The notes beneath the pieces were generated by a model that was not told the DNA's origin, did no database searches, and was given only the letters and a program-made list of their open reading frames with translations. Shown piece after piece: positions 10,573-60,748 of a stretch of 64,000 bases of DNA. The stretch lies in contig JAHIYU010000072.1 in NCBI GenBank assembly GCA_018814885.1, positions 2,211-66,210 on the forward strand. Reading direction: 5' to 3'. Position 1 is the first letter of the stretch. The number at the start of each line of letters is the position of its first letter. This DNA comes from a bacterium (GTDB taxonomy: Bacteria > Krumholzibacteriota > Krumholzibacteriia > LZORAL124-64-63). The position numbers and the translations under genes are program-made.

Positions 10573-11601
10573 TCAGCGGTACAGCCGCTTGACATCGCCC
10601 CAGGCGCTGCGCTCGTCTCCCGCGTCGCAGTCCGTGTCGTCGTAGGTGATGACGCCAGTGCCGGTCATGGCCGTGCGGTCCAGGACGCAGCACTGCAGCA
10701 GTACGGTGCTGCTGCCCGTCACCAGCCCCGCCTTGCCGTCGGGAGCCGCGTTGCCTTCGAACAGGACGTCCGTGGCGACGACTAGCGCGCCGAAATCCAG
10801 GTAGAGACCGCCGCCGGCCCCGGTGGCGTCGTTGTAGACCAGCTCGCAATCGCCGAGACGCGTCAGCGTACCCTTGCAGGCGATGGCGCCGCCGACTCCG
10901 GCGCGGTTGCCCGTAAAAACGCACTTGTCGAGCAGCGGCGCGTTGTCGCCGCCCGTGGCGTGGAAGCCGCCGCCCCAGCCGCCGGCGCGGTTGTTCGTGA
11001 AGATGCAGCCGCGCAGCACCGGATCCGCGAGGCGGCTGCAGAAGCCGCCGCCGGACCCCGCGTCGGCCACGTTGCCGGCGAAGACGCACCGCTCCAGCAG
11101 GGGCGCCGATTCGTTGCAGTAGAAGCCCGCGCCGTCGAGGCCCGTGATGCAGCCGATGAAGACGCAGTCGCGGAAGGCCACGTCGGCGTGGTTGCAGAAG
11201 ACGGCGCCCGCGGCCGCATCCATCCCGTTGGCGAAGGTGAGGCCTTCGACCGCCGTGGCGGCGGAGAGCCCCTCGCAGGAGAGGATGCGTCCCCGCCAGA
11301 CGGCATCCACGGTCACGCAGTCCGCCTCGCCGGTCGTGCTGCGCAGCACGACGCCTTCGGTCATCTCGAGTCCGGGTTCGGGGTAGACGCCGCAGGAGAC
11401 CAGGACGGTGTCGCCGGCGGCCGCGGCGGCGAGACCGGCCCCGATGGTGGGCAGCTCGTCCGGCACGCGCCAGGTGCGGGCGGTGGACGGTGCGGCGGCG
11501 GCGCATACGATCATCCAGATCGACAGCAGCGGCCACGCCTGTGCCGGCACGGCCAATAACCGGTTGCGATCGCTTCCGTCTTGCCTTTTTCTGGATGTCA
11601 T
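10573..11601 (-). CDS. Secreted right-handed beta-helix repeat protein carrying the conserved C-terminal WGxVKxLY tag
   Basis: Repeated GxxFxxCxFxxN-type beta-helix rungs (CVFIGC, CVFAGN, CIFTNN, CVFTGN). C-terminus ...DERSAWGDVKRLYR-stop. Start taken at the Met preceding the long hydrophobic signal region (MTSRKR...), so the start is uncertain. Confidence 0.55.
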   Translation of the reverse strand: MTSRKRQDGSDRNRLLAVPAQAWPLLSIWMIVCAAAAPSTARTWRVPDELPTIGAGLAAAAAGDTVLVSCGVYPEPGLEMTEGVVLRSTTGEADCVTVDAVWRGRILSCEGLSAATAVEGLTFANGMDAAAGAVFCNHADVAFRDCVFIGCITGLDGAGFYCNESAPLLERCVFAGNVADAGSGGGFCSRLADPVLRGCIFTNNRAGGWGGGFHATGGDNAPLLDKCVFTGNRAGVGGAIACKGTLTRLGDCELVYNDATGAGGGLYLDFGALVVATDVLFEGNAAPDGKAGLVTGSSTVLLQCCVLDRTAMTGTGVITYDDTDCDAGDERSAWGDVKRLYR

Positions 11602-11629
11602 ACCACGACCCTTACCCGGGAGACCGACG

Positions 11630-12319
11630 ATGCCCGCGATTACCAGCATGCCTCCGGAGATGCTCGCCTTCCTGTCCGACCTCGAGCGGAACAACCGGCG
11701 CGAGTGGTTCCAGTCCCAGAAGTCGCGTTACGAGATGACCGTGAAGGAACCGGCTCTGGGATTCGTCGCGGACTTCGCCCCGCGCCTGGCCAGGATCAGT
11801 CCCCACTTCGAGGCCGATCCCCGCCCGGTCGGCGGCTCGCTGTTCCGCATCTACCGCGACACGCGGTTCAGCCGCGACAAGACACCCTACAAGACCCACG
11901 TGGGCATCCAGTTCCGTCACGCGCGGGGCAAGTCGGTCCACGCCCCGGGCTTCTACCTCCACGTGGACCCCTACCGGCCCTTCGCCGGTCTCGGCGTCTG
12001 GCATCCCGACGGACCCACGCTCGCGTCGATCCGCGACGCCATCGTAGCAGATCCAGACGGTTGGCGGAAAGCCGCACACGGCAAGGCGCTGCGCCGGGTC
12101 TGGGACGTCACGGGCGATACCCTCAAGCGCCCCCCGCGCGGCTACCCGCAGGATCATCCCTTCGTCGAGGATCTCAAGCTCAAGGACTTCACCGCGATCG
12201 CCGCCCTGACGCCCGACGACCTGACCGCGCCGGATTTCGCGCGCGACCTGGCGGCTCTGTTCCGCAAGGGCGCCCCGCTGATGGGCTTCCTCTGCCGGGC
12301 CGTGGGCGTGGCGTACTGA
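11630..12319 (+). CDS. DUF2461 (TIGR02453) family protein
   Basis: N-terminus MPAITSMPPEMLAFLSDLERNNRREWF and the conserved FRIYRDTRFSRDKTPYKTH block. Confidence 0.7.
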   Translation: MPAITSMPPEMLAFLSDLERNNRREWFQSQKSRYEMTVKEPALGFVADFAPRLARISPHFEADPRPVGGSLFRIYRDTRFSRDKTPYKTHVGIQFRHARGKSVHAPGFYLHVDPYRPFAGLGVWHPDGPTLASIRDAIVADPDGWRKAAHGKALRRVWDVTGDTLKRPPRGYPQDHPFVEDLKLKDFTAIAALTPDDLTAPDFARDLAALFRKGAPLMGFLCRAVGVAY

Positions 12320-12332
12320 TCCGCGCCGGATC

Positions 12333-15179
12333 TCACTTCATGAGGGTCACGCGCCGGGTGGCCGTCCCGCCGGCGACGTCGCGGAACCGGATAAGGTAGA
12401 CGCCGCTGGGCGCCCGGTGTCCCGCGTCGTCCTCTCCCCGCCAGGTCATCGCGCCGTGGAGCGCCCGGGTGTCGCGGTCGTAGAGCCTGCGCACGAGGCG
12501 TCCGCGCGTGTCGAAGACGGTCAAGGCGACCGGGCCGGGGCGCGTCGCGCGCCAGGTGATGCGGGTCTGGGGATTGAAGGGATTGGGATAGACGGTCAAC
12601 TCGGGTCCCGCTCCCGCGTCGGGAAGCTGCGGCTCCATTTCCACGGCGACGGCATGCCTGTCGTCGGCGAAGGCGATGTCGTCGACAAAGAAGCCCTCCC
12701 CGCGCACCGCGGCATCGGAGGCGAAGACGAAGCGGAAGGTGACCGCGTCCTTGTCCCGGTCCGAGAGGTCGAACACGGCGCCCCGCCAGTCGCGGATCAC
12801 CCCGGACCAGCCGGGCCGGGAGCCCAGGGCCGAGACGCTGTCGTGGGTGTAGCCCGTCATCGGCTCCAGCAGGACCCATTCATCGTCGACCAGCAGTTCC
12901 AGGTTCACGCCGTCGAAACTCGATTCCGTGGAACACCAGTAGTGGAAGCTGAGGCGGAGCAGGTCCGTGTCCGGGTACGTGTAGGTGGCGGATGTGAGGG
13001 TGGCGTAGGCGTTGTTCAGGTATTGACCATCCAGGCCCACGGCCCAGCACCTGTGGGGCGAGAAGGCGGACTCGGGTCCCTGCGTCGGTACGCCCCAGGC
13101 CCAGTGGAGGCCGAAGGCCTGGTACCCGCCGGACATCGTGAACGACTCCACGGCGGGGGGTACGCGCACGTATTTCGTGTTGAAGCCGGTCTCGGTCGCC
13201 ACGGGCGTGATGATCTCGGCGTGCGCACCGTGCCAGGGCTTGTGGTCGTAGAGGATCGTGACTTCCTTGCCCGCGGCCAGGCCGGGCATGTCGTACGCCC
13301 CGTTCTCGCGCGTATAGGCGGGCAGGATCGGCTTGCCGGGCACCCAGACGCGGATGCCGGCGAGCTGGAGCGTGTCCATCCCGGCCACGAGCCCGGACAG
13401 GGTGACGTGTGGCAACCTGTTCAGGGAGATGTCCCGCGTCTGGTCGACGCCTGGCGTCACGTACGTCTCGATCGAGGCCATCTCGTAGAAATACTCGTCG
13501 AACTCGAGGGTCATCGGTCCGGCCGGCAGGTTGATGCTGTACAGACCGTCGGCGCCGGTGGTGATCCTCCGTTCGTGTTCCGGGAGAACGATGATTGCGT
13601 AGGGGATCGGCAGGCTCGATGTGCTGTCGGTGACCCGTCCGTTGAGGTTGCCGACGGAAATCGAGGCGAGCGACCAGGCGGCTGCGATGTCGGGGCGCGG
13701 GCCCACGTGTTGGGTGTCCGGCAGGTAGGGAGTGCCTGTCACGGTGAGCACTTCCCGCATGACTTGGGGATTCAGCGAGAAGCCGAGTTGCGCCCTGGCC
13801 ATGCCCTGCATGTCGGCCACGGCGCCGGCGATGATGGCGGACGCGCTCGAGGTGCCGCTGAACGAATCGGTGTACCACTGCTCTTCGGGGAACCCCTCGA
13901 CGGCTCCCTGCAGGTCGCCGTAGGCGCAGGTCGCGACCTCGCGGCCCCAGCAGTGTAGATCCAGGCGTTGTCCGTAGTTGGAGAACCACTCCGGTTCCAG
14001 GTCGGGGCGGGCGGCGCCGCACATGATGGCCCCGGAATTGCGATAATCGGGATCGAAGAGCGGACGGTATGCGGGGCCGTCCAGATCCTGCTGCCCGTTG
14101 CCGCCGGCCTCGCAGACGATCCGTCCGGAGGCGGTGGCGATGAGAATGGCGTCGAAGTTGTCCTGCCAGTACTCGACGGGCACGTAGCCGTATTCGCCGA
14201 TGCCGGTGGCGTTCGGTCCCGGCGCGTGCAGCTCGATCAGGATGATGTCGCCGCCGGCGATGATCTGGGCGGCCTTCAGGATGGCTTCGGGCAGGGATTG
14301 CGAGAAGATGGACGCGCCGCCGATCTGGCACGACGGAGCCACGCCCCGCACGCCGGAACCGTTGTCGGCGCCCCTGATCACTCCCTGCACGGCCGTGCCG
14401 TGATTGCGCCAGCTCTGGTCGTCGAACGGCGTGCCGCTGGTGTAGAAGGGGCTCGTCAGATCCTCGTGGTTCCACAGCCAGGACAGCTCGACGTCCACGA
14501 CCTTGACGTTCTCGCCCCGGCCGCCCGGCGTCTGCGCCACCGCGAGGGCGCCGATCCCCTCGGGCGGCGCGCCCAGATAGCCCTGCAGGAGCGAGTAATC
14601 CTGCGAATCGACGGCGTCCGGGGCGGCGTAATGGGAGTCGTCGTGATCATCATCGGAAGCGGGAGGCGTGTAGATTCCCGTGAACGCGTCGAAGCCGAGC
14701 GTGGCCGGCACGTAAGATGGTTCCAGGTAGGCCGTCTCCACGGACGGGTCCGCGAGCAGCCTCTCCACTATCCGCAGCAGGGAGGCGCGGTCCCTCGCGT
14801 CCGGCTCGATCACGCCGTAGGTGTTCAGGTCCGGCAGGTCGAGGCCGGAGCGGGCCTCCGCCGCGGCTCGCAGGGCATCGATGTCCGCCGGCTCCGTCCG
14901 GAAACGACGGCGCAACGTGCTGCCCGGCGCAGCGTTCTCGATCAGGCGCGCGATCCTGCCGGCGGAAGTCTTGTCCGTGGCGGCGACGCCGTCGCCGGTG
15001 ACTGTGATTCGCGCGGTGTCACTGAATTTCACGATCACGCGGCCGCTGGGCGCGGCCGTCTGCATGCCGGGTATTCTCTGCTTGGGCACGGCCCTGCGCG
15101 CCAGCGGCGCCGCCGCCACGGACGCAGCGGCGAGCGTCACCGCCAGCAGGAGGGTGATCGGTGCTGTGCGCAGGGTCAT
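12333..15179 (-). CDS. Secreted S8-family serine peptidase with C-terminal FlgD-Ig-like / T9SS-type sorting domain
   Basis: Signal peptide MTLRTAPITLLLAVTLAAASVAAAP. His motif HGTAVQGVI, Ser motif SGTSSASAIIAGAVADM. C-terminal tail LTVYPNPFNPQTRITW...VYLIRFRDVAGGTATRRVTLMK. Start placed at an in-frame ATG with RBS. Confidence 0.7.
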   Translation of the reverse strand: MTLRTAPITLLLAVTLAAASVAAAPLARRAVPKQRIPGMQTAAPSGRVIVKFSDTARITVTGDGVAATDKTSAGRIARLIENAAPGSTLRRRFRTEPADIDALRAAAEARSGLDLPDLNTYGVIEPDARDRASLLRIVERLLADPSVETAYLEPSYVPATLGFDAFTGIYTPPASDDDHDDSHYAAPDAVDSQDYSLLQGYLGAPPEGIGALAVAQTPGGRGENVKVVDVELSWLWNHEDLTSPFYTSGTPFDDQSWRNHGTAVQGVIRGADNGSGVRGVAPSCQIGGASIFSQSLPEAILKAAQIIAGGDIILIELHAPGPNATGIGEYGYVPVEYWQDNFDAILIATASGRIVCEAGGNGQQDLDGPAYRPLFDPDYRNSGAIMCGAARPDLEPEWFSNYGQRLDLHCWGREVATCAYGDLQGAVEGFPEEQWYTDSFSGTSSASAIIAGAVADMQGMARAQLGFSLNPQVMREVLTVTGTPYLPDTQHVGPRPDIAAAWSLASISVGNLNGRVTDSTSSLPIPYAIIVLPEHERRITTGADGLYSINLPAGPMTLEFDEYFYEMASIETYVTPGVDQTRDISLNRLPHVTLSGLVAGMDTLQLAGIRVWVPGKPILPAYTRENGAYDMPGLAAGKEVTILYDHKPWHGAHAEIITPVATETGFNTKYVRVPPAVESFTMSGGYQAFGLHWAWGVPTQGPESAFSPHRCWAVGLDGQYLNNAYATLTSATYTYPDTDLLRLSFHYWCSTESSFDGVNLELLVDDEWVLLEPMTGYTHDSVSALGSRPGWSGVIRDWRGAVFDLSDRDKDAVTFRFVFASDAAVRGEGFFVDDIAFADDRHAVAVEMEPQLPDAGAGPELTVYPNPFNPQTRITWRATRPGPVALTVFDTRGRLVRRLYDRDTRALHGAMTWRGEDDAGHRAPSGVYLIRFRDVAGGTATRRVTLMK

Positions 15180-15412
15180 CGTTTCTCCGGGCGTAGCGGT
15201 CCGTAAATCGACCGCTGGAAACAACCTCCGCTTGTGGTGATCTCGGCAGCGGTGTTATCACTATACTGACAAACGGGCACGCTTGGCAAACCTGTTGGGG
15301 CCCCTGCCGGGCCGGTTCCCGGGGTCGCTCGACTCGGTTGCGTGTCGCGGAACCCGCTCTTTGTTACGTATCTGGTCCTGTCTTCGTTACACGACTCGGG
15401 AGGTTGCATCGC

Positions 15413-17200: not shown

Positions 17201-17309
17201 TGGGCGGGCACCGAAGAGTGTGTGTGGCGCCTGATGCGTCGAAAGGCATTCACGCCGGATTAGGCGCCCCACACACCCTTCGGTGCGGCATAGATGAAAC
17301 GAGGGCTGC

Positions 17310-18215: not shown

Positions 18216-18290
18216 TGTCCGGAATGCCGAACCGGCAAGGTGGACGGGGTTATCGCGAAGGAGAATCGTCCAGGAGGGGACAGGAATATC

Positions 18291-30351: not shown

Positions 30352-30431
30352 GGGGCTCCGTTTCGGGATCGCGTCGGGAGAGGATAGCATAGACCAGAGG
30401 CGCCGGGAGACGAAGGAAGGAAAGGGCGGGG

Positions 30432-34597: not shown

Positions 34598-35200
34598 CTA
34601 CGGTTCGATGTTCAGGGCGAGGGTCAGGCTGGTCAGCGAGGCCCAAACTTCCAGGTCGCGCGTGGCGAAGGCGGCGTGCGAGATCTGAGGCGACAGCGAA
34701 AGCGCGCCGCCGAGGTGCAGTTCGTAGCCGCAGGCCAGCAGGTAACAGGTGCCGGTGTCGTGCATGATCTCCTGGCGGCCGCGTTCCAGGTAGTCGAGGC
34801 GGGCCGAGCCCAGGCCGTAACCCAGGCGTGCGAACAGGCCGCCTCGCCAGGGATGCCAGGTGACGGCCACGGCCGCGGTGATCAGATCGAGACGCGCCGA
34901 GGCGAGATCGTCGTCGGCCCGTCGCGACCAGGCGAGCAGCTCGACGCCGACGGTCAGATCGTCGAGCAGCCTGCAGCCGGCGCCCAGCTGCAGGGACGTG
35001 CCCGCCTCCCGGTCGTCCAGCCGCGGGATGCGGGCGTAATCGTCGTAGAGGCGCAGCACGTTGTCGGCCGTCCGACCCCAGCCCACGCCGGCTCCCAGCA
35101 CGAACAGCACGCCGGGGCCGCCGTCCGCCTCGATCGGCGCGGGCGCGCTCCGGGCGAAGGACGCGATCGACAGCAAGATCATCAGCAGGCACGTGCGCAT
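34598..35200 (-). CDS. Small secreted beta-rich protein, possibly an 8-strand outer-membrane barrel
   Basis: Signal peptide MRTCLLMILLSIASFARSAPA. About 180 aa with an alternating hydrophobic pattern. Stop lies 9 nt upstream of the asparaginase start. Confidence 0.4.
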   Translation of the reverse strand: MRTCLLMILLSIASFARSAPAPIEADGGPGVLFVLGAGVGWGRTADNVLRLYDDYARIPRLDDREAGTSLQLGAGCRLLDDLTVGVELLAWSRRADDDLASARLDLITAAVAVTWHPWRGGLFARLGYGLGSARLDYLERGRQEIMHDTGTCYLLACGYELHLGGALSLSPQISHAAFATRDLEVWASLTSLTLALNIEP

Positions 35201-35249
35201 CGGCCGATGCTAGGCGGTGGGGCGGGGCGCGTCAATCGGCGCGGTCGAC

Positions 35250-47338: not shown

Positions 47339-47537
47339 GGCCCGATGTTAACGGCAGCGCCGAGCGCGGGGAAGGCCGGAAGTCGTTGAAATCCGTGATC
47401 AAATCGGGACAAATGTACGGTATTATATATACTGGTGAAGATTGGTCATGTGCTCGCATGGTCGCCGCGGCGGCATCCCATTGGTGTGCCCGGGGAAGGC
47501 TGCGGGCTGTAAGGTGTCAATTTGCAGGAGGTTGAAA

Positions 47538-50500
47538 ATGCACCGCAGGTTCCTCACACTCGTACTCTTGAGCGCGGCTCTCGTCGTATCCGGCTCTTCT
47601 TTCGCCGGGGGCCACGAAGGTTACGCCTTCCTGGATCGTCTGGATGAAGCCCGTGAATCCGGCGCCCTCTCGGCGGACGAGGCTCTGCTCTACAAGTTCT
47701 ATTACGTGTTCGATCAGGACAAGCTGCCTGTCGACTACCGCCCGGACAGCTTTCCGCCCCTGAAGTGCGCCACGCCCCTGATCCAGGAATTCGAGCAGTC
47801 CCGCGGCTCACTGCAGGACGCCACGGTCGCCTCGGTGGAAGCCATGCTGGCGCCCAAGGGCGGCGACAAGGCCACGTACATCAGTCCGTCCGGGATCTTC
47901 CGCTTCACCTACCTGACGACCGGCGGCGACGCCGTGCCGTCGACCGACACCAATCCCGCCAACGGCATCCCGGATTTCGTGGAGTGGTGTGCCGGCTATA
48001 TGGATTATTCCTGGGATTTCGAGATCACCACGATGGGCTTCACCGCGCCCCCGCTGAGCCCCTACTACGAGATGAACTTCGAGAGCATGGGCGCCTACGG
48101 CTACACGCAAGTCGTCACCGGCACGAGAACGCGGATCACGCTCCACAACACCTTCCTGGGCTTCCCGGCCAATGACGACCCCGAGGGCAACCAGAAGGGC
48201 GCCGCCAAGGTCACCTGCGCCCACGAGTTCAAGCACGCCTCCCAGCGCGCCCAGTCCGGCTGGTCCGAGGGCGGCTGGGTCGAGCTGGATGCGACCTGGA
48301 TGGAGGACATCGCCTACGACGTGGTCAACGACTACTACAACTACCTCTGGTCGGGCTGCGGCATCACCTCCCCGCAGCTGTCCCTCGACGACGGGGGCAG
48401 CGGCTCCTACGAGGACTGCATCTGGCAGCACTGGATGAGCGAGACCTTCGGCAACCAGATCATCATCGACTTCTGGAACTGGCGTTCGTCGCATACGTCC
48501 CAGTTGGTGCTGTCCTCGTACAACGCCATCCTGGCCACGTACGGCTCCTCGCTGGCGGAGGGCTACGGTCTATTCAGCGGCTGGAACTTCCCCACCAACA
48601 TCCGTGCCCTGCCCGGGATCGGCTACGAGGAGGCCGCCGACTTCCCGAACAGCTCGGTAACCTCGCACGCCTCCTATCCCTACACCACGAACGGCACGCT
48701 GGACCACCTGGCCGCCAAGATGCTCTATCTCGGCGGGTTCCAGGCCGGCGAGCCGGGAACGCTGCACATCGCGTTCGACGGCGACGACGCCACTTCCATG
48801 CGGCTGGTCGCCGTGATCAGGAAACGGGATGGTACGGGCGTGTTCGAGCCGATTCCCCTGGACTTCTTCATGGACGCCGACGTGGAACTCAGCGTCCCCT
48901 TAGCCGAGATCTACACGGTCGGCATCGTCGCCTCCAACACAGCCCAAACGGGAACGGCCCGCCCCTGGTCGATCACCATCAGCAAGAACCTGCCCGACCC
49001 CCTGGTCGACCTGAGCAGCCCGACCCTCGACGCGGAGCTGGACATCGACGCGACCGGCATGCAGGGCCTGACCATCACCAACGTCGGCGCTGCGGGCTCG
49101 ATCCTCGCCTACGACGTCGTCCTGATGCAGGATTCGCCCGTGGCCAAGACCGCCGCTCCCCGCAGCCTGTCCGTGCCCAGCCGCGAGCAGACCCGCGCCA
49201 TGCCCGAACTGCAGCGGGGAGGCGAGCTCGCGCCCTCGCGCTACGCCGGCGACTGCGAGTTCGGCAACACCGACCTGGGCAGCGTCCAGGGCTATTACGG
49301 TACGTGGTGGTACGGCAACGAGGTCTATGCCTACCGCATCAACCCGGCGGACTACGACTGCAGCATCTGCGACGCCGGCTTCAACGTGCGGGCCATGCAC
49401 ATGGTGCTCTACCTCGAGCCGACCTCGACGCCCGGCATGGTGGCCCACCTGATGGAGGCCTCCGGCGACTGCACCACGCCCGGCGCGATCATCGACAGCT
49501 CCGCTCCGATGACCGTCTCCGGCATCGCGGCGGCGGGACTGTACATCATCGAGATCCCCTGCGATTTCGTCTGCTCCGACATGGGCGCCGAGTACTTCCT
49601 GGCCGTGGAGTTCACCGACACCAACGGCCCGGTGGGCATCGCCATCGACACCACGCCGCAGAGCTGCGTCTGCTACAACGACTGGGGTTCCGGCTGGGTG
49701 GACGTCGTGTCCCAGTACAGCTTCGCCGGCGACTTCTTCATCTATGCCGACGTGGACTGCTGCGGCGAACCCGACCCCGAGGTCACGGTGATCCAGCCCA
49801 ACGGCGGCGAGTTCGTGGCCGTGGGCGCGTCGCTCGACATGAGCTGGACCGCCACGCTCCTGACCGACGTCAAGATCGACCTGAGCCGCAACAACGGCGG
49901 CGTCTGGGAGACGGTGCTGGCCACGACGCCCAACGACGGCGCCCAGTCCGACATCGCCACCGGACCCACCTCGAACCAGTGCCTGCTCCGCGTCAGCAGC
50001 CTCGACGACCTGTACACCGACGTCAGCGACGCGGTCTTCACCATCTACGACACGGTCCCCTGGCTGTCCGTGGACATCGACAACGGCGACCTGGGCCTGG
50101 GCGAGAACGACCTGCTGACCTTCACCTTCGACGCGACGGGACTGGCCGAAGGCGTCTACACCGGCTACGCGGTGTTCTTCAGCAACGCCGCGTCCTCGCC
50201 GGACGTGGTCACCGCCACCCTGACCGTCAACGACCCGGGCACCGCCGTGGGCGACTCGCCCCACGTCTTCGCCCTGAAGGGCAACTATCCCAACCCGTTC
50301 AACCCGTCCACCAAGGTGAGCTTCGCCATCCCGGAGGCCGGGCAGGTCACCATCGACGTGCTCGACCTGCAGGGCCGCGTCGTGCGTACGCTGCATTCCG
50401 GACACCTCGACGCCGGCTTCGCCAGTGTGGTCTGGGACGGTACCGACGTCGACGGCCGCCAGATGGCGTCCGGCACCTACATGGCGCGCCTGAGCGCCGC

Positions 50501-50540
50501 CGGCCGCACGGCCACCCACAAGATGACCCTGGCCAAGTAG
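47538..50540 (+). CDS. Secreted ~1000-aa putative zinc metalloprotease (HExxH) with C-terminal FlgD-Ig-like / T9SS-type sorting domain
   Basis: AGGAGG RBS before ATG 47538. Signal peptide MHRRFLTLVLLSAALVVSGSSFAGG. CAHEFKHASQ supplies HExxH. Tail LKGNYPNPFNPSTKVSFAIP...YMARLSAAGRTATHKMTLAK. Confidence 0.6.
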   Translation: MHRRFLTLVLLSAALVVSGSSFAGGHEGYAFLDRLDEARESGALSADEALLYKFYYVFDQDKLPVDYRPDSFPPLKCATPLIQEFEQSRGSLQDATVASVEAMLAPKGGDKATYISPSGIFRFTYLTTGGDAVPSTDTNPANGIPDFVEWCAGYMDYSWDFEITTMGFTAPPLSPYYEMNFESMGAYGYTQVVTGTRTRITLHNTFLGFPANDDPEGNQKGAAKVTCAHEFKHASQRAQSGWSEGGWVELDATWMEDIAYDVVNDYYNYLWSGCGITSPQLSLDDGGSGSYEDCIWQHWMSETFGNQIIIDFWNWRSSHTSQLVLSSYNAILATYGSSLAEGYGLFSGWNFPTNIRALPGIGYEEAADFPNSSVTSHASYPYTTNGTLDHLAAKMLYLGGFQAGEPGTLHIAFDGDDATSMRLVAVIRKRDGTGVFEPIPLDFFMDADVELSVPLAEIYTVGIVASNTAQTGTARPWSITISKNLPDPLVDLSSPTLDAELDIDATGMQGLTITNVGAAGSILAYDVVLMQDSPVAKTAAPRSLSVPSREQTRAMPELQRGGELAPSRYAGDCEFGNTDLGSVQGYYGTWWYGNEVYAYRINPADYDCSICDAGFNVRAMHMVLYLEPTSTPGMVAHLMEASGDCTTPGAIIDSSAPMTVSGIAAAGLYIIEIPCDFVCSDMGAEYFLAVEFTDTNGPVGIAIDTTPQSCVCYNDWGSGWVDVVSQYSFAGDFFIYADVDCCGEPDPEVTVIQPNGGEFVAVGASLDMSWTATLLTDVKIDLSRNNGGVWETVLATTPNDGAQSDIATGPTSNQCLLRVSSLDDLYTDVSDAVFTIYDTVPWLSVDIDNGDLGLGENDLLTFTFDATGLAEGVYTGYAVFFSNAASSPDVVTATLTVNDPGTAVGDSPHVFALKGNYPNPFNPSTKVSFAIPEAGQVTIDVLDLQGRVVRTLHSGHLDAGFASVVWDGTDVDGRQMASGTYMARLSAAGRTATHKMTLAK

Positions 50541-51647: not shown

Positions 51648-52589
51648 TTGCTGCTCGGACTGCTCCATTCGGCGCTCGGTATCGTCCTGCTGGTGGGCGG
51701 CGCCACGCTGCTGGTCAAGGGCAGTTCCAAGCTCGCCGACCTGCTGGGCGTGCCGCCGGTGCTGATCGGCCTGACGGTGGTCGCCTGGGGAACCTCGGTC
51801 CCGGAACTGGTCGTCGCCCTGGCGGCGGCGGCGCAAGGCAGCTCGGGGATCGTGCTGGGCAACGTGGTCGGCTCCAATCTCGCCAACACGGGCCTGATCC
51901 TGGGCCTGGCCGCCATGCTCATGGCGCCCCGGGTGGAGCGCCGCCTGTGGACCTTCGACGTGCCGGCGCTGCTGGCCTCGACGGCTCTGTTCGTCATCTT
52001 CCTGGCCGACGGCGACATCGACGGTCTGGAAGGGGGCGTGTTGATGGCGGTGTTCGGATTCGTGACCTTCATGACCGTGCGCAAAGCGTTCCTCCACCCC
52101 CGCGCGATCGAGCTTCCGGAGGAGCCGAAGCCCCTGGCCAAGGGCGTGACGGTCAATCTCCTGATCGCGGTGCTGGGCGTGGCGGGACTGGTGGTCGGCG
52201 GTCAGCTGCTCGTCAAGGCGGCGATCCGGCTCGCCGAGGCCCTGGGCGTCTCCGACATGGTGATCGGACTGACTCTGGTGGCCGTGGGTACGAGCCTGCC
52301 CGAACTGGCCACGACGCTGGTTGCCGCCGTGCGCCGCGAATGCGGTATCGCCCTGGGCAACGTGATAGGTTCCAACATCTTCAACCTGCTGGCCGTGTCC
52401 GGTCCGGCCGCCCTGATCCGGCCCATCGTCCTCGGCGAGGGCGGCGTGTGGCGCGAGACGGGGGGCCTGATCGCGATCACGCTGCTCCTGCCGCTCCTGC
52501 TGGTCGGACGCGAGCGGATGACCCGCGCCGGCGGTCTGGCCCTGCTGCTGCTCTACTGTGCGTTCATCACCTGGCGCATCGTCGCTTGA
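51648..52589 (+). CDS. Calcium/sodium antiporter (CaCA family, YrbG-like)
   Basis: Two alpha-repeat motifs GTSVPEL and GTSLPEL. Ten TM helices. TTG start. Confidence 0.8.
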   Translation: MLLGLLHSALGIVLLVGGATLLVKGSSKLADLLGVPPVLIGLTVVAWGTSVPELVVALAAAAQGSSGIVLGNVVGSNLANTGLILGLAAMLMAPRVERRLWTFDVPALLASTALFVIFLADGDIDGLEGGVLMAVFGFVTFMTVRKAFLHPRAIELPEEPKPLAKGVTVNLLIAVLGVAGLVVGGQLLVKAAIRLAEALGVSDMVIGLTLVAVGTSLPELATTLVAAVRRECGIALGNVIGSNIFNLLAVSGPAALIRPIVLGEGGVWRETGGLIAITLLLPLLLVGRERMTRAGGLALLLLYCAFITWRIVA

Positions 52590-52603
52590 ATCCGGGAGAA
52601 GGC

Positions 52604-53389
52604 ATGCCGTCAAACAAGAATGACAAGCGGGGCGAACCGGTCGTCGCCAAGGCAGGCGATGCCAAGCCGGATTCCCGGGGGCTGGCCCGCAGGATCGCCA
52701 AGGCCGGCTACGCGACGCGCCGGCAGGCCGAGGAGATGGTACGCTCGGGCCGCGTGCGCGTGGACGGCAAGCGGCGTCTGGATCCCTACATGTCCATCGC
52801 GCAGGACCAGGAAATCCTGATCGATGGCGTGCCCATGGCCGAGGTCATCCGTTCGTACTTCGCCTTCTACAAGCCCGACGACATGTCCACCAATCCCACG
52901 GCAGGACATCGCACCCGCCTTCTGGGCGAGTTCATCCCGCGGGACGTGCCCGGTATCCGGGCGGCCGGACGTCTGGACGCCGGCACCACGGGTCTGCTGC
53001 TGCTCTCGAACGACAGCGCCTGGAACGCCGCGGCCGCCAGCGGCCACGGCTTCGACAAGGAGTTCCTGGTGACGGTGACCGGCGCCATCTCTGACGACCA
53101 GATCGAGGTCATGGCCGCGGGCGTGCAGCTGCCGCGCGTGGGCCACCTGCACCCGTCGCTGGTGCGCGTCGAGAGTCGTTTCGACCACAATACGGTCTTC
53201 CGCATCGCCCTGGGCGGCGGCAAGGTCCGCCAGATCCGGGCGCTGTGCGCGGCGATGCACCTGAAGATCGAGAAGATACACCGCGTGCGCATCGGTCCCG
53301 TCAAGCTGGGCCTGCTCAAGCCGGGCCGCTATCGCCCGCTGTCGAAGGCCGAGATCGAGGGGATCCGGGAGGGGGCGGGTAGTCGATGA
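52604..53389 (+). CDS. Pseudouridine synthase (RsuA/RluB family, S4 RNA-binding domain)
   Basis: GGGAGAAGG RBS. S4 domain region, then catalytic block GRLDAGTTGLLLLSND with the conserved Asp. Confidence 0.8.
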   Translation: MPSNKNDKRGEPVVAKAGDAKPDSRGLARRIAKAGYATRRQAEEMVRSGRVRVDGKRRLDPYMSIAQDQEILIDGVPMAEVIRSYFAFYKPDDMSTNPTAGHRTRLLGEFIPRDVPGIRAAGRLDAGTTGLLLLSNDSAWNAAAASGHGFDKEFLVTVTGAISDDQIEVMAAGVQLPRVGHLHPSLVRVESRFDHNTVFRIALGGGKVRQIRALCAAMHLKIEKIHRVRIGPVKLGLLKPGRYRPLSKAEIEGIREGAGSR

Positions 53390-54135
53390 GGGCGCATGGT
53401 AATAGCGTCCGCTCCGTCGCACCCGGTAAACCTGCCGAAACCGGTGACTTCCTCTTGAAGCGCAGATATAGACTCGTTTCGTCTTGGCTACCCGGTGATA
53501 TCGATACGATGCTAGATTTCGGTTGTGGCAATGGCGCGCAGACGATCCTGTTTGCTGACCACGCCAGGAAAATCTATGGTCTGGATGTTTCTGAAAGTTA
53601 TCTAAATGACTTCCGCAAGCATGCTCGTGAGTTGGGATTGGAGAACAGCCTGGAGGCAGTGCATTATGATGGTCGGAACATACCTGTTTCAGATGGCTCC
53701 ATCGATTGTCTGACGACCTTCGAGGTGCTCGAGCACGTACCGGATGAAATGCATGCGTTATCTGAAATCTATAGAGTTCTTGCGCCCGGAGGCCTGCTTT
53801 TCATCACCGTTCCCAACCGATGGTGGATCTTCGAAACCCATGGCGCCGACCTTCCGCTTCTGCCCTGGAATCGTGTCCCATTCTTCAGCTGGCTACCCAA
53901 GCGAATTCATGATCGATATGCAAGAGCAAGAATCTATGGGCGCGATGAGATCGTGAGGGAACTGGTCGAAGCGGGGTTTCTGATCCGGGACGTCATGTAC
54001 ATCACCGCTCCAATGGATGTCGTCAAATGGCGCAGGCTCAGGGATTTTCTCAGAAAAACGGTTTTCAGGGGAGATACGACGAGAGTTCCCATCTTGGCGA
54101 CAGCTATACTTGCTGTAGCCATGAAGCCCGAATAG
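53386..54135 (+). CDS. Class I SAM-dependent methyltransferase; low-GC gene
   Basis: Motif I LDFGCGNG and motif post-I IYGLDVS. ATGA overlap with the upstream gene. GC about 48%. Confidence 0.7.
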   Translation: MRAHGNSVRSVAPGKPAETGDFLLKRRYRLVSSWLPGDIDTMLDFGCGNGAQTILFADHARKIYGLDVSESYLNDFRKHARELGLENSLEAVHYDGRNIPVSDGSIDCLTTFEVLEHVPDEMHALSEIYRVLAPGGLLFITVPNRWWIFETHGADLPLLPWNRVPFFSWLPKRIHDRYARARIYGRDEIVRELVEAGFLIRDVMYITAPMDVVKWRRLRDFLRKTVFRGDTTRVPILATAILAVAMKPE

Positions 54136-54221
54136 GGTTTATTGTTGAAAATGTATCTCTAATAGGGTATTCTAATCACGATTGATCCTCGCCCATATTT
54201 ATTGTCAGAAAGGAAAGCACT

Positions 54222-55319
54222 ATGCGTACGATCATCTCGATCGGTCTTATGGTTTTCTTGCTCCCGGTTTTCACGGCGAGTGCCCTGCTGGCGACTACCA
54301 TCGTCGTTGATCATGCTGGCAGCGGCGACTACACGACCATCGGTGAGGCGGTGACAGCCGCTCCCTCCGGTGCGGAGATCGTCATCATGCCAGGCACATA
54401 TCCGGAGTTCGTGATCGTCGCGAAGTCGCTGACGTTCACAGCCAATGGCCTACCGGGCTCTGTCATCTGGGATGGTGAGAACAGCCACCGCATCCTCAAG
54501 GTGCGCACGCCGATCGCGGTCTCGTTCACTGGTATCGAATTCCGTGATGGCTTCGACCCGATCGAGGATGGATGCGGAGTCGCCATTCACATCGACACCG
54601 GAGCGGTTGTGACGATCGACCAGTGCCGTTTCATCAATAATCACGCGAGCTGGGATGGCGCCGTGTTTGCGGGCCTGAGTGGTACATCGGTCACGATCAC
54701 CAACAGCCACTTCGAGGATAATTATGCCTATCATAATTGCCCCGCGGCCGGCGTGCTTCTCGATGCGGAAATGGTGATCGACAACTGCACATTCATCGAC
54801 AATATCTGTTCAAACATCTCGGGAGCCGTCGCATCATGGCAAGCCGATCTCTCGGTTCAGCATTGTCTATTCGCGGGGAATACGGGTGGAACTGCGGGTG
54901 CAATCCTCGTGAGTGGTGGCGGTGGGGATATCTACAACAACACATTTCACGACAACCACGGCGGTAATGTCGTCCTCATCTCGACCTCCTCTCCTTATTC
55001 GTACCATCACAATATCATGACCATCAACACCTCGGGTGGGGGACTTTACATGTCCAGCGGTATAACCCACGGCTGCAACCTGTTCTATGAAATCGCTGGA
55101 GACGAGGTGTCCGGAGGCCTGGCACCCGACGAGATCGTCGCCGATCCGTTGTATTGCGATTATACCGTCGGGGATTTCAACCTGTGCTACATGTCTCCGG
55201 CCCTGCCGGAGAACAACGGTTGTGGCATGATGGGGGCGTTCTCCATGGGATGTACGACATGTGGGCCTATCGCCAACGAAGATAGGGCCTGGGGTGACGT
55301 CAAGAAGATGTACGACTGA
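54222..55319 (+). CDS. Secreted right-handed beta-helix repeat protein carrying the conserved C-terminal WGxVKxLY tag (paralog of 10573..11601)
   Basis: Signal peptide MRTIISIGLMVFLLPVFTASA. Beta-helix rungs (CRFINN, SHFEDN, CTFIDN, CLFAGN, NTFHDN). C-terminus ...NEDRAWGDVKKMYD-stop. AT-rich promoter-like leader 54136..54221. Confidence 0.6.
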   Translation: MRTIISIGLMVFLLPVFTASALLATTIVVDHAGSGDYTTIGEAVTAAPSGAEIVIMPGTYPEFVIVAKSLTFTANGLPGSVIWDGENSHRILKVRTPIAVSFTGIEFRDGFDPIEDGCGVAIHIDTGAVVTIDQCRFINNHASWDGAVFAGLSGTSVTITNSHFEDNYAYHNCPAAGVLLDAEMVIDNCTFIDNICSNISGAVASWQADLSVQHCLFAGNTGGTAGAILVSGGGGDIYNNTFHDNHGGNVVLISTSSPYSYHHNIMTINTSGGGLYMSSGITHGCNLFYEIAGDEVSGGLAPDEIVADPLYCDYTVGDFNLCYMSPALPENNGCGMMGAFSMGCTTCGPIANEDRAWGDVKKMYD

Positions 55320-55382
55320 TCTCCGGTGCAATGGGATCGATAAAGGCGGCCGATATCTGGCCGCCTTTTCCTTGGCAGCTGC

Positions 55383-56837
55383 CTACAACCCCACCATCCC
55401 GTTGAACTCCCTGATCCGCTCGTCCCAGCCCTCGGCCTCGGCGAACATCTCCGGCCAGAAGTCGCGGTCCCAGAGCCGGCGCAGATCGTCCACGTCGCGC
55501 TGCTGTTGCTCGACCCAGGTGAAGTACTTGAAGTTGTGGAGCTGCTTGCGGTCCTGGTAGCTCAGCTCGCGCACGTGATCGGGCGTGACCCCGACGAGCC
55601 AGCGCTCCCGGTGGCGCAGGGCGTCCTCGCGCGCGTAGGGTCCGTGCGCGTCGTTCAGCTCGGCCAGGCGCGACGCGTAGAGCTCGGTGGAGTCGGTCAG
55701 CGGCGTGAAGATCACGTCACGCCCGTCCATTTCGTAGTGGCGGGCGGTCTTGATCGCCGAGACCAGGTTGCCGATGGACGAGATGCCCAGAAGGTGGAGC
55801 TGGTCGACCAGGTCGATGGGCACACCCTCGCGCTCGAGGGTCGCGCGGCCCGCGGGCTCGTTGAACAGGCGCAGCAGGTCCATGCACTGCTGGTCGTCGA
55901 CGGCGACCACGAAGTCGGTGTTGCGCACGTTGTGGATCCAGGGCACGTGCTTGTCGCCGATGCCCTCGATGCGGTGGCCGCCGAAGCCGCAGCGCAGCAG
56001 GGTCGGGCACTGCAGCGCCTCGCTGGCGGCGATCAGGGCGCCGGGATGGCGGTCCTTCAGGTAGTCGCCGGCGGCCAGCGTCCCGGCCGAGCCGGTGGCC
56101 GAGACCCAGGCGGCGAAGCGGTCGCGCGGGCCCGCGAGGCGCGCGAAGATCTCGTCGACGATGCCGCCGGTCAGGTGGTAGTGCCACTGGGCGTTGCCCC
56201 ACTCCTCGAACTGGTTGAAGATCACGCATTCGGGGCGCGTGCGTCGGATCTCCCAGCACTTGTCGTAGATCTCCTTGACGTTCGACTCGCAGCCGGGCGT
56301 GGCGATGACCTCGGTGGCCACGTCCTGGAGCCATTCGAAGCGCTCGCGGCTCATCTCCTCGGGCAGGATGGCCACCGAATCGCAGGCCAGCAGCTTCGAG
56401 TCGAAGGCGCCGCCGCGGCAGTAGTTGCCGGTGCTCGGCCACACGGCCTTCTGCGCGGTGGGATCGAAGGCGCCGGTCACCAGGCGCGGCACCAGGCAGC
56501 CGTAGGCCGCGCCCACCTTGTGCGCGCCGGTGGGGAAGTACCTGCCCACCAGGCCGACGATGCGCGCCGGGACGCCCGTCAACTCGGGCGGGAATTCGAG
56601 CCAGTTGCCATCGTTGAACAGCCCGCTCTGCGGGTCGTTCTTCCAGGTGATGCGGAAGAGGTTGACCGGGTCGATGTCCCACAGTCCCACCTCGCGCAGC
56701 CGCTCCTTGATCCGGCCGGGGACCAGCGACGGGTCCTTCATCTCCGCCAGGGTGGGCAGGACGATGTTGCGCTCGCGCGCGCGCGCGGCGGCCTTGTCCA
56801 GGACGGCGGGGTCCACGATATCGAGTGTGTGCGGCAT
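55383..56837 (-). CDS. Pyridoxal-phosphate-dependent enzyme, fold type II (Trp-synthase-beta / cysteine-synthase superfamily), 484 aa
   Basis: PLP-lysine block FPTGAHKVGAAYG. Overall fold-II pattern. GAGGA RBS before ATG 56837. Only the 3' 1455 nt of the long 55383..59174 ORF are used. Confidence 0.55.
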   Translation of the reverse strand: MPHTLDIVDPAVLDKAAARARERNIVLPTLAEMKDPSLVPGRIKERLREVGLWDIDPVNLFRITWKNDPQSGLFNDGNWLEFPPELTGVPARIVGLVGRYFPTGAHKVGAAYGCLVPRLVTGAFDPTAQKAVWPSTGNYCRGGAFDSKLLACDSVAILPEEMSRERFEWLQDVATEVIATPGCESNVKEIYDKCWEIRRTRPECVIFNQFEEWGNAQWHYHLTGGIVDEIFARLAGPRDRFAAWVSATGSAGTLAAGDYLKDRHPGALIAASEALQCPTLLRCGFGGHRIEGIGDKHVPWIHNVRNTDFVVAVDDQQCMDLLRLFNEPAGRATLEREGVPIDLVDQLHLLGISSIGNLVSAIKTARHYEMDGRDVIFTPLTDSTELYASRLAELNDAHGPYAREDALRHRERWLVGVTPDHVRELSYQDRKQLHNFKYFTWVEQQQRDVDDLRRLWDRDFWPEMFAEAEGWDERIREFNGMVGL

Positions 56838-56981
56838 GGATTTGTCCTCGGCTGGTCCAGGGGCTTTATTATCCGTCGGGCAACTGATAGACTGCCATCG
56901 CTTCGTTTCGACTAGAATGCGAGACCAGACGCTTCCGGTCAACCCGGCTGTTGCCGGCCCACGCCTCCGAAGGATGAGATC

Positions 56982-59246: not shown

Positions 59247-59321
59247 CCGGATCGATCATCGGCAACAAGCAGCCCCGCCGCTCGGCGAGCGGCGGGGCTG
59301 TTCCGTGCGGCGCGGTCCGGC

Positions 59322-59936
59322 TTACTTGTACAGGCTCTTCACGCCGCCCCAGTTCGCGTTTTCGCCGACCACGGGATTCTGGTTGGGGAACCAGATCCCG
59401 GCGTGGTCCGGGGCGGTGACGATGACGTCGTCGCACCAGTAGCCGTCCTCGACGGCAACGCTGTACATGCGGAACTCCACCATCAGGCCCAGGTGATTAG
59501 GGTCCGTGCCGTCGAAAGTCCACGTCCAGGTCAGCTGCTCCCAGCCGGTCCCGGCCGAGTAGGTCCCGCTGCCGCCTGCCGACCCCGTGTAGTTCAAGTG
59601 GTCGTTGTCGGTGTAGTGGCCCCAGATCCGGGAACTCGGCGACACGCCCGCGGAGGTGTCGTACGTCCAGAAGCTGGCCGTGACCACGTCGCCGTTCTGC
59701 AGGTCCGAGATCCAGGCGACGTACATCTGGGGCGTGCCGCCGAGGGGATCCTCGTAACCGAAGAGGGCGCTTGCGCCGGTGTGGACGACATCGGTCACGT
59801 TCGCCCCCCCGCCGACGTTGCCGTCGGTGCCGAAGACCGTCGAGTACCCGTCTTCCCATCCGAAGGAGCGGGTGTGCTGGGCCACCGCGCCGGTGGCCAT
59901 CGCGGCGATCAGCGCCGCGATCGTCAATAACTTCAT
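59322..59936 (-). CDS. Small secreted protein, tandem paralog A, with the C-terminal WGxVKxLY tag
   Basis: GGAGGA RBS before ATG 59936. Signal peptide MKLLTIAALIAAMATGAVA. Conserved YGWEDG and LGGTPQ.Y.AWI blocks shared with the neighbour. C-terminus ...ENANWGGVKSLYK-stop. Confidence 0.6.
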   Translation of the reverse strand: MKLLTIAALIAAMATGAVAQHTRSFGWEDGYSTVFGTDGNVGGGANVTDVVHTGASALFGYEDPLGGTPQMYVAWISDLQNGDVVTASFWTYDTSAGVSPSSRIWGHYTDNDHLNYTGSAGGSGTYSAGTGWEQLTWTWTFDGTDPNHLGLMVEFRMYSVAVEDGYWCDDVIVTAPDHAGIWFPNQNPVVGENANWGGVKSLYK

Positions 59937-60103
59937 GCCATCTATCCTCCTCGCCTCGCACTTTGGAAGCCGGTTGATCACGTCCCTATTATTTTGACAT
60001 ATAATCATGGATTTGGCAAGTTCTCGTCTGGCTTGGCGGGCAAGTGGAAGCCCCGCCGCTTTAGGAGCGACGGGGCCTTCGTGATACCAGCGAAACTTTC
60101 CGC

Positions 60104-60748
60104 TTACCTGAACAGGTTCTTCACAGCGCCCCAGGAGGAGTCCTCGTTGCCGACGGGCTCGCGGTCGGGGAAGTAGATCGTCGCATTATCGGGAGCGGTG
60201 ATGGTGATGTCATCCACCCAGGTATCGGTGTCGCCGGGCGGCGTGACACCGGTGCCGCTGTAGATGCGGAACTCGATCACCAGCGCGGTCGCGTCGGGGT
60301 CGGGAGTGCCGGAGACGCCGTAGGTCCAGCTGTCGGCGATGTTCTCCCAGCCGATGCCGGTCGTGTAGGGGCCGAGGCCGCTGGCCGTGCCGGCATAGTC
60401 GTTGATGTCATTGGTGCTGTAGTGGCCCCACAGGCGGAAGCGGGGGTAGTAGTCGGGGTCTGGCGTGTCGTCGAAGACCCAGCAGTCCACATTGACCACG
60501 TCGTTGAGCTGCAGGCCCGTGATCCAGGCCAGATAGACCTGGGGCGTGCCGCCCAGGGGCTCTTCCCACGTGTACAGGGACCGGTCGCCGCTGTGGGAGA
60601 AGTCCCCCACGTTCACGGTACCACCCACGTTGCCGTAGATGCCATGAGCTGTGCCGACACCGTCTTCCCAGCCGTAGCTGAGAGTCTGATCCGCCATCGC
60701 GCCGGTGGCCGCCACGGTGAGAACCAGCATAATTGTCAATAGCCTCAT
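60104..60748 (-). CDS. Small secreted protein, tandem paralog B, with the C-terminal WGxVKxLY tag
   Basis: GAGGAGGA RBS about 9 nt before ATG 60748. Signal peptide MRLLTIMLVLTVAATGAMA. C-terminus ...NEDSSWGAVKNLFR-stop. Preceded by a roughly 340-bp AT-rich leader / promoter region. Confidence 0.6.
   Translation of the reverse strand: MRLLTIMLVLTVAATGAMADQTLSYGWEDGVGTAHGIYGNVGGTVNVGDFSHSGDRSLYTWEEPLGGTPQVYLAWITGLQLNDVVNVDCWVFDDTPDPDYYPRFRLWGHYSTNDINDYAGTASGLGPYTTGIGWENIADSWTYGVSGTPDPDATALVIEFRIYSGTGVTPPGDTDTWVDDITITAPDNATIYFPDREPVGNEDSSWGAVKNLFR

Follow-up and report, generated by a model that had tools for sequence, protein, structure and literature searches.

A short C-terminal tail on exported proteins of uncultured FCB bacteria as a candidate modular tag of the cell envelope

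Introduction

C-terminal sorting tags provide the main route for predicting the surface proteome of uncultured bacteria, and LPXTG, PEP-CTERM and the C-terminal domain (CTD) recognized by type IX secretion systems (T9SS) each opened the way to finding a machine for secretion or anchoring. Haft has listed seven attributes of such small C-terminal sorting domains (10.1101/2023.06.07.544157). In case of the T9SS, motif C-t with its conserved Lys is needed in P. gingivalis, where the last 22 residues of Hbp35 suffice for the export of green fluorescent protein, and P. intermedia uses CTDs of 40-55 residues composed of three strands (PMC11285876, PMC11969387). Here, we describe a tail of about 18 residues, with a core of the form W-G-x-V-K-x-L-[YF]-R, which terminates four exported proteins encoded on a stretch of 64,000 nucleotides from a bacterium of the Krumholzibacteriota (assembly GCA_018814885.1, contig JAHIYU010000072.1, positions 2,211 to 66,210; hereafter the window) and proteins from metagenome-assembled genomes (MAGs) of further lineages.

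With the domains considered by Haft, this tail shares the C-terminal location, the presence of several copies per genome, at least three nearly invariant residues, the association with signal peptides and the attachment to unrelated passengers, and it lacks a hydrophobic segment of transmembrane (TM) length and a terminal cluster of 2-5 basic residues (10.1101/2023.06.07.544157). It is a modular C-terminal tag whose architecture is unlike that of either a tripartite TM signal or a folded CTD. Full-text searches of the literature, run with strings of the motif and on sorting signals known from these phyla, gave no description of the tail and, since neither Pfam nor NCBIfam contains a model for it, we regard it as a novel form of a familiar kind of tag.

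Results

Four exported proteins of the window end in a shared tail

A sequence-only reading of the window had proposed that four proteins with signal peptides share a motif at their C-terminus, and its coordinates, protein ends and signal peptides are all borne out. The four open reading frames (ORFs) are found at the positions listed in Table 1, with products ending in DERSAWGDVKRLYR, NEDRAWGDVKKMYD, GENANWGGVKSLYK and NEDSSWGAVKNLFR, and in each of them the motif is followed by exactly one residue before the stop codon. Sec-type signal peptides could be read directly from the sequence in all four cases, with cleavage sites at AVA/QHT and AMA/DQT in the small proteins and mature chains starting near TWRVP and TTIVVD in the β-helix proteins. 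The same reading had described the four proteins as unrelated, which does not hold, as they constitute two homologous pairs: the small proteins encoded at 59322..59936 and 60104..60748 are paralogs with 46% identity, and the two β-helix proteins are distantly related to each other (24% identity, E 8e-9).

The regular expression WG.[VIL][KR]..[YFW] has exactly four matches in the six-frame translation of the window, all located exactly one residue before a stop and inside long ORFs with a high GC content at third codon positions (GC3), and a looser C-terminal expression applied to the same 64 kb revealed no additional copies. On the DNA level, the motif together with its stop codon is matched three times in the window compared to 0.00 matches expected from 100 dinucleotide shuffles. 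Searches of the four proteins against NCBIfam (June 2026) and Pfam detected no model covering the tail and no match at all for the small proteins. In a fold search, the product of 60104..60748, which is identical to NCBI entry MBU1073598.1, was found to resemble β-sandwiches of carbohydrate-binding modules (CBM) of the CBM22/4/16/27 type.

The tail is kept in homologs of both β-helix proteins. It is found in three homologs of the protein encoded at 10573..11601 (P0065, P0079 and P0129), and orthologs of the protein encoded at 54222..55319 retain WGxVKx[LM][YF]D, with the last residue being uniformly Asp instead of Arg (K[KM][ML][YF]D before the stop). More distant homologs of the latter end in SWGRVKSFYR, SWGSIKAMFR or TWGGIKARYK. 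The GC3 of this gene amounts to 0.69, compared to about 0.9 in its neighbours, with a regional GC content of 0.585-0.634 (window positions 52000-56000), and the low GC3 and the Asp-ending orthologs together suggest a gene that moved horizontally and whose product has a variant tail. A syntenic relative (L063) contains both this β-helix gene and the small paralog.

The tail is a position-specific tag found in several uncultured lineages

We have scanned 185,579 species-representative genomes with the DNA pattern TGGGGNNNNGTNAARNNNCTGTWYMRNTRR, which encodes WGxVKxL[YF]x followed by a stop codon and matched at least 120 loci. The following counts refer to these listed loci unless noted otherwise. 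Their labels comprise Eisenbacteria (21), 'uncultured Fibrobacteraceae' or Fibrobacter sp. (20), Krumholzibacteri- (14), Gemmatimonad- (6), Latescibacter- (5), unclassified 'bacterium' (49) and other names (5), the last of which are probably chance matches or mis-binned contigs; no cultured isolate is found among them. From the information content, we estimate about 35 chance matches across the whole genome collection, which would be expected to spread over well-sampled phyla. In the 909 kb of sequence recovered from the loci, the corresponding protein expression occurs 170 times, with exactly one residue preceding the stop in 159 and no more than two residues in 164 cases, and when only occurrences that had not been picked by the DNA pattern are considered, 35 of 40 are located within two residues of the stop. 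Similarly, an exhaustive profile search that is blind to codons, covering 1.84e9 representative proteins, returned 82 matches at E ≤ 1e-3, of which 76 have a copy within two residues of the C-terminus. Exceptions to this placement are confined mainly to one NTF2-like family. The proposed restriction to the extreme C-terminus holds for the bulk of the occurrences and fails for this family, in which tandem, internal and N-terminal copies are found.

The tail is found in several copies per genome, with four in the window, up to six tail genes in a single block of 8 kb (L087) and several such blocks per MAG. Synonymous codons vary freely at the G, V, K, Y/F and R of the tail, indicating that it is the peptide that is under selection, and we have for this reason rejected a 3' element operating on the level of DNA or RNA. 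We conclude that the tail constitutes a position-specific tag on the peptide level that is independent of the passenger family. All four matches from a viral collection (IMG/VR, L004-L007) are typical tail-ending ORFs of 259-285 codons (e.g. with the end STWGQVKSLYR), suggesting either misclassified bacterial contigs or envelope proteins carried by phages.

Anatomy and predicted structure of the tail

When comparing one representative per cluster of tail proteins, the conserved unit spans about 18 residues with the consensus G-[PVA]-[VT]-[PA]-[TVA]-E-x-[TS]-[ST]-W-G-x-V-K-x-L-[YF]-R, in which W, G and K are nearly invariant and accompanied by V/I, L/M and Y/F. Positions that were free in the search pattern are conserved as well, with 2.6 bits for [ST] at -10 and 1.3-1.9 bits for V/T at -16, P/A at -15 and E at -13. 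No conserved positions are found further upstream than about -18, so that a hidden domain is not present. The conserved unit is longer than described in the initial reading and reaches upstream of the Trp. The final position is occupied by R in 143 of 159 tails (90%) and otherwise by Q (7), K (4), N (3), H (1) or D (1). As had been proposed, the tail contains neither a TM segment, with only 8-9 residues following the conserved Trp, Lys and Arg included, nor a basic cluster, with basic character at the end limited to a single terminal residue. A variant found in Candidatus Aegiribacteria (P0026, P0029, P0034 and P0037) follows the pattern R-x-T-W-[GA]-x-I-K-x-x-F; it ends in Phe without a terminal basic residue and its upstream residue is basic instead of acidic.

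In an AlphaFold2 model of the 214-residue paralog (mean predicted local distance difference test score, pLDDT, of 87), the β-sandwich is predicted to extend until about residue 192, followed by a disordered linker (193-205) and a short helix outside of the passenger fold that comprises residues 206-212 (W...L). In a helical-wheel projection, the residues W, V, L and Y/F fall on a common face that is flanked by K and R, and the helical hydrophobic moment is 0.5-0.7 in three of the four tails computed. These features weakly suggest that the tail would adopt the conformation of a short helix.

A Cys is found at positions -18 to -20 in about 30% of the cluster representatives (L008-L127) within the context (G)DCP[VI]A[TV]E, and in about half of the representatives a Cys is located no more than 25 residues upstream of the Trp, corresponding to a 2.7-fold enrichment in the linker. 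This Cys might form a disulfide with the passenger or be modified. Two possible origins of the tail were considered and rejected. Its description as a degenerate PEP-CTERM signal would rest on a resemblance of V-P-x-E to VPEP that is too weak, and its assignment as the first strand of a CTD, from an alignment at locus L013, is equally too weak and not reproduced by other pairs.

Tail proteins are small, exported and diverse

The 133 complete tail proteins encoded at the loci fall into 63 BLAST clusters, and about 110 of them have no match in Pfam. Passengers with a match belong to the Pfam families LTD, DUF7451, Beta_helix, PPC, PD40 propeller, FG-GAP, CHRD, cytochrome c7, CBM_4_9, cupredoxin and cohesin and to the NCBIfam families choice_anch_R (choice-of-anchor R), floc_PepA, FxDxF PEP-CTERM and DVUA0089. 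In none of the 133 proteins is the tail itself matched by a model of either database. With a median length of 241 residues compared to 590 residues for CTD cargo at shared loci (p = 9e-18), the carriers are small, and their genes are often organized in tandem arrays of paralogs. A strict heuristic for the calling of signal peptides was positive in 67% of the tail proteins, in 56% of the CTD cargo serving as positive control and in 24% of all other genes, which is in line with the association with signal peptides anticipated in the sequence-only reading. A family of tail proteins of about 200 residues (BLAST cluster 0, N-terminal DPDxDGIGVYFD) adjoins or is found near a FlgD_ig-CTD protein of 1462-1470 residues in three MAGs (L010:1104-7752, L031:2384-7790 and L075:135-6278), and this conserved pair might reflect a functional partnership.

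The tail takes the place of other anchors

A comparison of 43 homologs of the small paralog revealed a single passenger domain with differing ends. Besides WGxVKxL[YF]R, these include TWGxIKxxF in Aegiribacteria, a PEP-CTERM signal of the form FAPEPxSLxLLxLGxLxLLRRR (e.g. in Nitrogeniibacter, Pfam PF07589) and MYXO-CTERM-like ends. Likewise, P0056, a homolog of the β-helix protein encoded at 54222..55319, carries a FlgD_ig CTD instead of the tail. In locus L013, the adjacent genes 5773-6414(+) and 6447-7454(+) encode passengers that are 70% identical over 170 residues, one followed by a linker of 21 residues and the tail, the other by about 95 residues of linker and FlgD_ig CTD, thus providing a natural tag swap that is well suited to experiments. 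Further pairs of this kind are found in L057/L110 (58% identity) and L030 (37%). A hidden Markov model (HMM) of the CTD built from the tail loci matches none of 138 tail proteins, indicating that tail and CTD are mutually exclusive endings. The tail is hence not the last strand of a known CTD, a possibility that had been raised alongside the initial proposal, as is also evident from the lack of conservation upstream of about -18. The tail therefore fills the architectural slot of PEP-CTERM, of the FlgD_ig/T9SS-type CTD and, in the family described below, of an N-terminal lipid anchor.

An NTF2-like family carries internal, tandem and N-terminal copies

In a family assigned as NTF2-like by fold search and consisting mostly of lipoproteins, the motif is not restricted to the extreme C-terminus. 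Members of this family contain C-terminal arrays in which 2-5 copies follow each other in tandem, spaced by about 20 residues (P0064, P0069, P0070, P0072 and P0081), duplications of the type domain-motif-domain-motif (P0063, P0067, P0096 and P0113) or a copy located 10-20 residues downstream of the signal peptide; further motif-bearing cases are P0100 and L103:519-3850. The N-terminus could be read in 22 homologs of P0084; here, a copy of the motif near the N-terminus (ASWG[SA]IKAMYRG) is present in all 13 proteins that lack a lipobox cysteine and absent in all nine that have a lipobox, and this exclusivity is maintained at less than 50% identity. From its placement in these sequences, the motif appears to function also away from a free carboxylate, and it can be multiplied and replace a lipid anchor. 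The internal, tandem and N-terminal copies together with the replacement of the lipid anchor are better accounted for by a peptide that docks or anchors non-covalently than by a cleaved signal.

In the AlphaFold2 model of P0084, the last 10 residues have a mean pLDDT of 91 compared to 56-59 for the tail on a CBM-like protein, which hints that the tail perhaps packs on the NTF2-like domain. On the basis of this model, the domain might be a receptor or a self-assembling unit and, if the former is true, NTF2-like lipoproteins with their one to five copies each could form multivalent head-to-tail networks. Two mini-ORFs, P0076 (48 residues) and P0091 (73 residues), consist only of a signal peptide or lipobox and one or two copies of the motif and could be free anchor peptides, competitors or gene fragments.

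Context of the tail genes in the window

The four tail genes and four genes for CTD proteins in the window are listed in Table 1. The latter confirm that FlgD-like T9SS-type CTDs are found in the same genome, as had been noted before; the corresponding proteins are large and secreted and end in K/R-hydrophobic-x-L-hydrophobic-K/R. The genome thus uses a T9SS-type tag beside the short tail. That the two would define independent targeting systems is not substantiated, as the tail could still feed into the T9SS. None of the window genes scanned encodes a T9SS core component (SprA/Sov, PorV, PorU etc.), with no genome-wide search having been made. A Peptidase_M48 gene (61747-63054), located two genes from the small paralogs, was rejected as candidate for a processing enzyme, since its product lacks a signal peptide and a comparable linkage is not found at the other loci.

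Table 1. Tail-bearing genes and genes for CTD proteins in the window.
Feature	Coordinates	Strand	Protein end	Details
Right-handed β-helix protein, signal peptide, 342 aa	10573..11601	minus	CDAGDERSAWGDVKRLYR	Tail codons and stop 10573-10602; Pfam Beta_helix / Chlam_PMP
β-helix protein, signal peptide, 365 aa	54222..55319	plus	CGPIANEDRAWGDVKKMYD	Motif W..Y 55290-55313; Pfam Beta_helix / Chlam_PMP
Small CBM-like β-sandwich protein, signal peptide, 204 aa	59322..59936	minus	NPVVGENANWGGVKSLYK	Tail and stop 59322-59351
Paralog, CBM-like, signal peptide, 214 aa	60104..60748	minus	EPVGNEDSSWGAVKNLFR	Tail and stop 60104-60133
FlgD_ig / Por_Secre_tail CTD protein (alternative tag, context)	3..1376	plus		Domain match
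FlgD_ig / Por_Secre_tail CTD protein, S8 subtilase	12333-15254	minus		Domain match
FlgD_ig / Por_Secre_tail CTD protein	29008-30834	minus		Domain match
FlgD_ig / Por_Secre_tail CTD protein	47439-50540	plus		Domain match

Several other genes of the window encode large or exported proteins. A protein of 1997 residues, which combines numerous TPR repeats with a CHAT (caspase-like) domain at its C-terminus, is encoded at 35250-41243(-), adjoining a gene (34598-35209) for a signal-peptide protein of 203 residues with a weak match to the Autotransporter β-domain. The gene at 5030-6259(+), which is flanked by genes of secreted proteins, encodes a signal-peptide protein of 409 residues without a Pfam match, whose C-terminus RYWIGLTYKL resembles that of outer membrane proteins (OMPs) and which may be an uncharacterised outer-membrane barrel.

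Discussion

A candidate docking tag of the cell envelope

Our analysis has retained one part of the initial proposal of a dedicated sorting or anchoring signal, namely the logic of a modular tag, which is manifested in its position (more than 90% of the copies are found at the extreme C-terminus), its presence in at least 63 families unrelated in sequence and its exchange with other anchors, whereas the internal and N-terminal copies argue against a sortase-like cleavage. We consider the chances to be evenly balanced that the tail acts as a modular tag for the non-covalent anchoring or docking to the envelope of Sec-exported proteins, some of them lipoproteins, in an uncultured group of the Fibrobacteres-Chlorobi-Bacteroidetes (FCB) superphylum. 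The tail is a unit of about 18-20 residues, in which a Pro/Thr-rich linker containing a conserved V-P-T-E stretch precedes [ST]-W-G-x-[VI]-K-x-[LM]-[YF]-R. In the mechanism that we propose, the flexible linker would, after export by the Sec system, present W-G-x-V-K-x-L-Y-R as a short amphipathic helix, which would dock non-covalently on a conserved component of the envelope, a receptor protein or possibly the membrane interface. Such docking would keep small binding modules, as well as redox proteins, attached to the cell envelope, and multiple copies would confer higher avidity. Both the docking and the compartment of the tail proteins are features that we infer. That W, G and K hardly vary between phyla points to a specific reader rather than to a generic affinity for membranes or amphipathicity, and the strong preference for a distance of one residue to the C-terminus suggests that this reader usually also contacts the terminus.

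More tentatively, the tail might be a universal ligand in the form of an amphipathic helix of nine residues on a flexible leash, as part of an unrecognised anchoring system whose receptor could be the NTF2-like lipoprotein family or a T9SS shuttle. With similar reserve, we would assign this system to Eisenbacteria, Krumholzibacteriota, Latescibacterota and related uncultured FCB bacteria.

Several observations weigh against a non-covalent docking tag. The Leu of the motif was fixed as CTG in the DNA pattern, which biases the scan towards genomes with high GC content, and all tail carriers are MAGs. The very strong preference for exactly one residue following [YF] suggests that a free C-terminus is of importance in most of the proteins, which is better matched by a receptor or enzyme that reads the C-terminus than by a ligand that functions independent of position. 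The helix of the tail on a CBM-like protein is predicted with low confidence (pLDDT 56-59), the signal peptides were called by a heuristic, and the swap between lipobox and motif may be a single event that was kept within one clade. Finally, the genes neighbouring the tail genes across the at least 120 loci listed did not include a conserved enzyme, receptor or other partner, with recurrent neighbours being of generic nature, such as ABC ATPases, kinases, TPR proteins and transposase-like genes.

Weighing of alternative explanations

Among the alternatives, we have paid most attention to a relationship to the T9SS, which we judge to be unlikely but not far-fetched. Type IX machinery, such as the PorV shuttle, would in this case read the tail as an ultra-short substitute of a CTD, or small proteins would hitch-hike on CTD cargo. 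Such a relationship would explain why the tail is restricted to those FCB lineages in which FlgD_ig/Por_Secre_tail CTD proteins are abundant and why it replaces the CTD on paralogs that are 58-70% identical. It is also in line with a slight excess of tail genes that adjoin a CTD gene (27 of 138, compared to 19 ± 2.9 in within-locus shuffles), where the neighbours usually share the strand and are separated by short gaps, with the end L-hydrophobic-[KR] and a conserved basic residue a few positions upstream that are common to the tail and local CTDs, and with the small size that signals of this system can have, as in case of the 22 residues of Hbp35 and the CTDs of P. intermedia with 40-55 residues. 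However, the tail contains neither GxY (motif D) nor motif B nor a β-hairpin, it is predicted to be helical instead of a strand, and its basic residue is located at -5 compared to -6 in CTDs. None of 138 tail proteins is recognized by the CTD HMM and none of 133 by Por_Secre_tail (PF18962) or FlgD_ig (PF13860). Internal, tandem and N-terminal copies and the replacement of a lipid anchor would be unexpected for a translocation signal, and an intact folded CTD was argued to be required for the process (PMC11285876).

A lower probability is assigned to a cleaved sorting signal, where a periplasmic or outer-membrane transpeptidase would link the protein covalently to lipopolysaccharide, peptidoglycan or a polymer, for example via the invariant Lys. 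There is a precedent in Lpp, which is linked through its C-terminal Lys. The invariance of the Lys in the gathered data, the fixed register relative to the C-terminus and the agreement with five of Haft's seven attributes are all compatible with such processing. In contrast, the lack of a TM helix and an Arg cluster implies that known intramembrane enzymes of the sortase type cannot act in their usual way, no gene for an enzyme is co-located with the tail genes at the listed loci, and the conserved tandem, internal and N-terminal copies are not obvious sites of cleavage. Moreover, 90% of the tails end in R and not in K. A role outside of localisation, either as peptide for oligomerisation or partner binding or as C-terminal degron for a periplasmic tail-specific protease, appears even more doubtful. 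Although a fixed C-terminal register would suit recognition by a PDZ-type domain, the carriers are mostly small (with the median of 241 residues compared to 590 residues in CTD cargo) and the pLDDT of 91 for the NTF2-like tail hints at its packing on the domain, the replacement of PEP-CTERM, T9SS CTD and lipid anchor points to localisation, and a degron would be hard to rationalise on more than 60 unrelated exported families and in tandem. Finally, the tail shared in the window could have originated from chance, simple paralogy or erroneous annotation, as its carriers form just two homologous pairs. The probability of this explanation is negligible: it is refuted by the shuffle test with 0.00 expected matches, the stop-proximal positions, the 63 unrelated clusters found elsewhere and the independent recovery of the tail in the codon-blind profile search, and annotation artefacts are incompatible with tails that are in frame to real stop codons of long ORFs with high GC3.

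The tail marks a large class of exported proteins that is currently unannotated in several candidate phyla, which are common inhabitants of soil, groundwater, sediments and activated sludge. An HMM of the tail would improve the annotation of thousands of 'hypothetical proteins' and offer a handle for phylogenetic profiling of its reader. If the anchoring system outlined above exists, cells would display small lectin-like, adhesin-like and redox modules with no need for a TM segment, a lipid or a sorting domain that is folded. Being short and attached to many folds, the tail might be exploited as a compact display tag once its receptor is identified.

Comparison with known systems

Like PEP-CTERM/exosortase, LPXTG, GlyGly-CTERM, MYXO-CTERM and PGF-CTERM, the tail is a short modular C-terminal tag, which is found many times per genome on signal-peptide proteins with unrelated passengers. 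It is interchangeable with PEP-CTERM on the CBM-like family of the window and on the floc_PepA, FxDxF and choice-of-anchor R families. Unlike these tripartite signals, which span about 25-35 residues compared to about 18 in the tail, it has no TM helix and, instead of an Arg cluster, only one R (or K, Q, D) at its end, it can be internal, N-terminal or tandem, and no cognate multi-pass membrane enzyme was found at its loci.

With the type A CTDs of the T9SS (PF18962 / PF13860), the tail shares the distribution in FCB lineages, the same genomes and often loci and the location at the extreme C-terminus, and it replaces the CTD on close paralogs. In contrast to these, it is not a folded β-sandwich, has no motifs B and D (GxY) and no HMM match, is predicted to be helical and is attached to much smaller carriers. 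It is also 2-5 times shorter than the shortest described CTDs, the 40-55-residue domains of Prevotella intermedia. When its end V-K-x-L-[YF]-R is compared to the end of local CTDs, [RK]-[KR]-[LMIV]-x-L-[LV]-[KR], the last three positions are shared, with the basic residue shifted by one.

Further parallels extend to receptor-read C-terminal peptides and multivalent non-covalent anchors, which bear no relationship in sequence to the tail, and to the β-signal of OMPs. As in PTS1 (-SKL/PEX5) and KDEL signals, the tail is a short linear peptide whose distance from a free C-terminus is fixed and which would be read by a receptor. An aromatic C-terminal motif on Sec-exported proteins is also found in the β-signal of OMPs (x-Φ-x-F), and the Aegiribacteria variant ends in TWGxIKxxF. 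Unlike the β-signal, however, the tail is attached to soluble β-sandwich, β-helix and NTF2-like passengers, it usually ends in Arg and shows no alternating hydrophobic pattern. Similar to choline-binding repeats, GW modules and the dockerin-cohesin system, its repetition in the NTF2-like family suggests an anchoring based on avidity. Whereas the known non-covalent anchors of bacteria are folded repeats or domains, the tail would be a predicted helix of nine residues acting in the diderm envelope of FCB bacteria.

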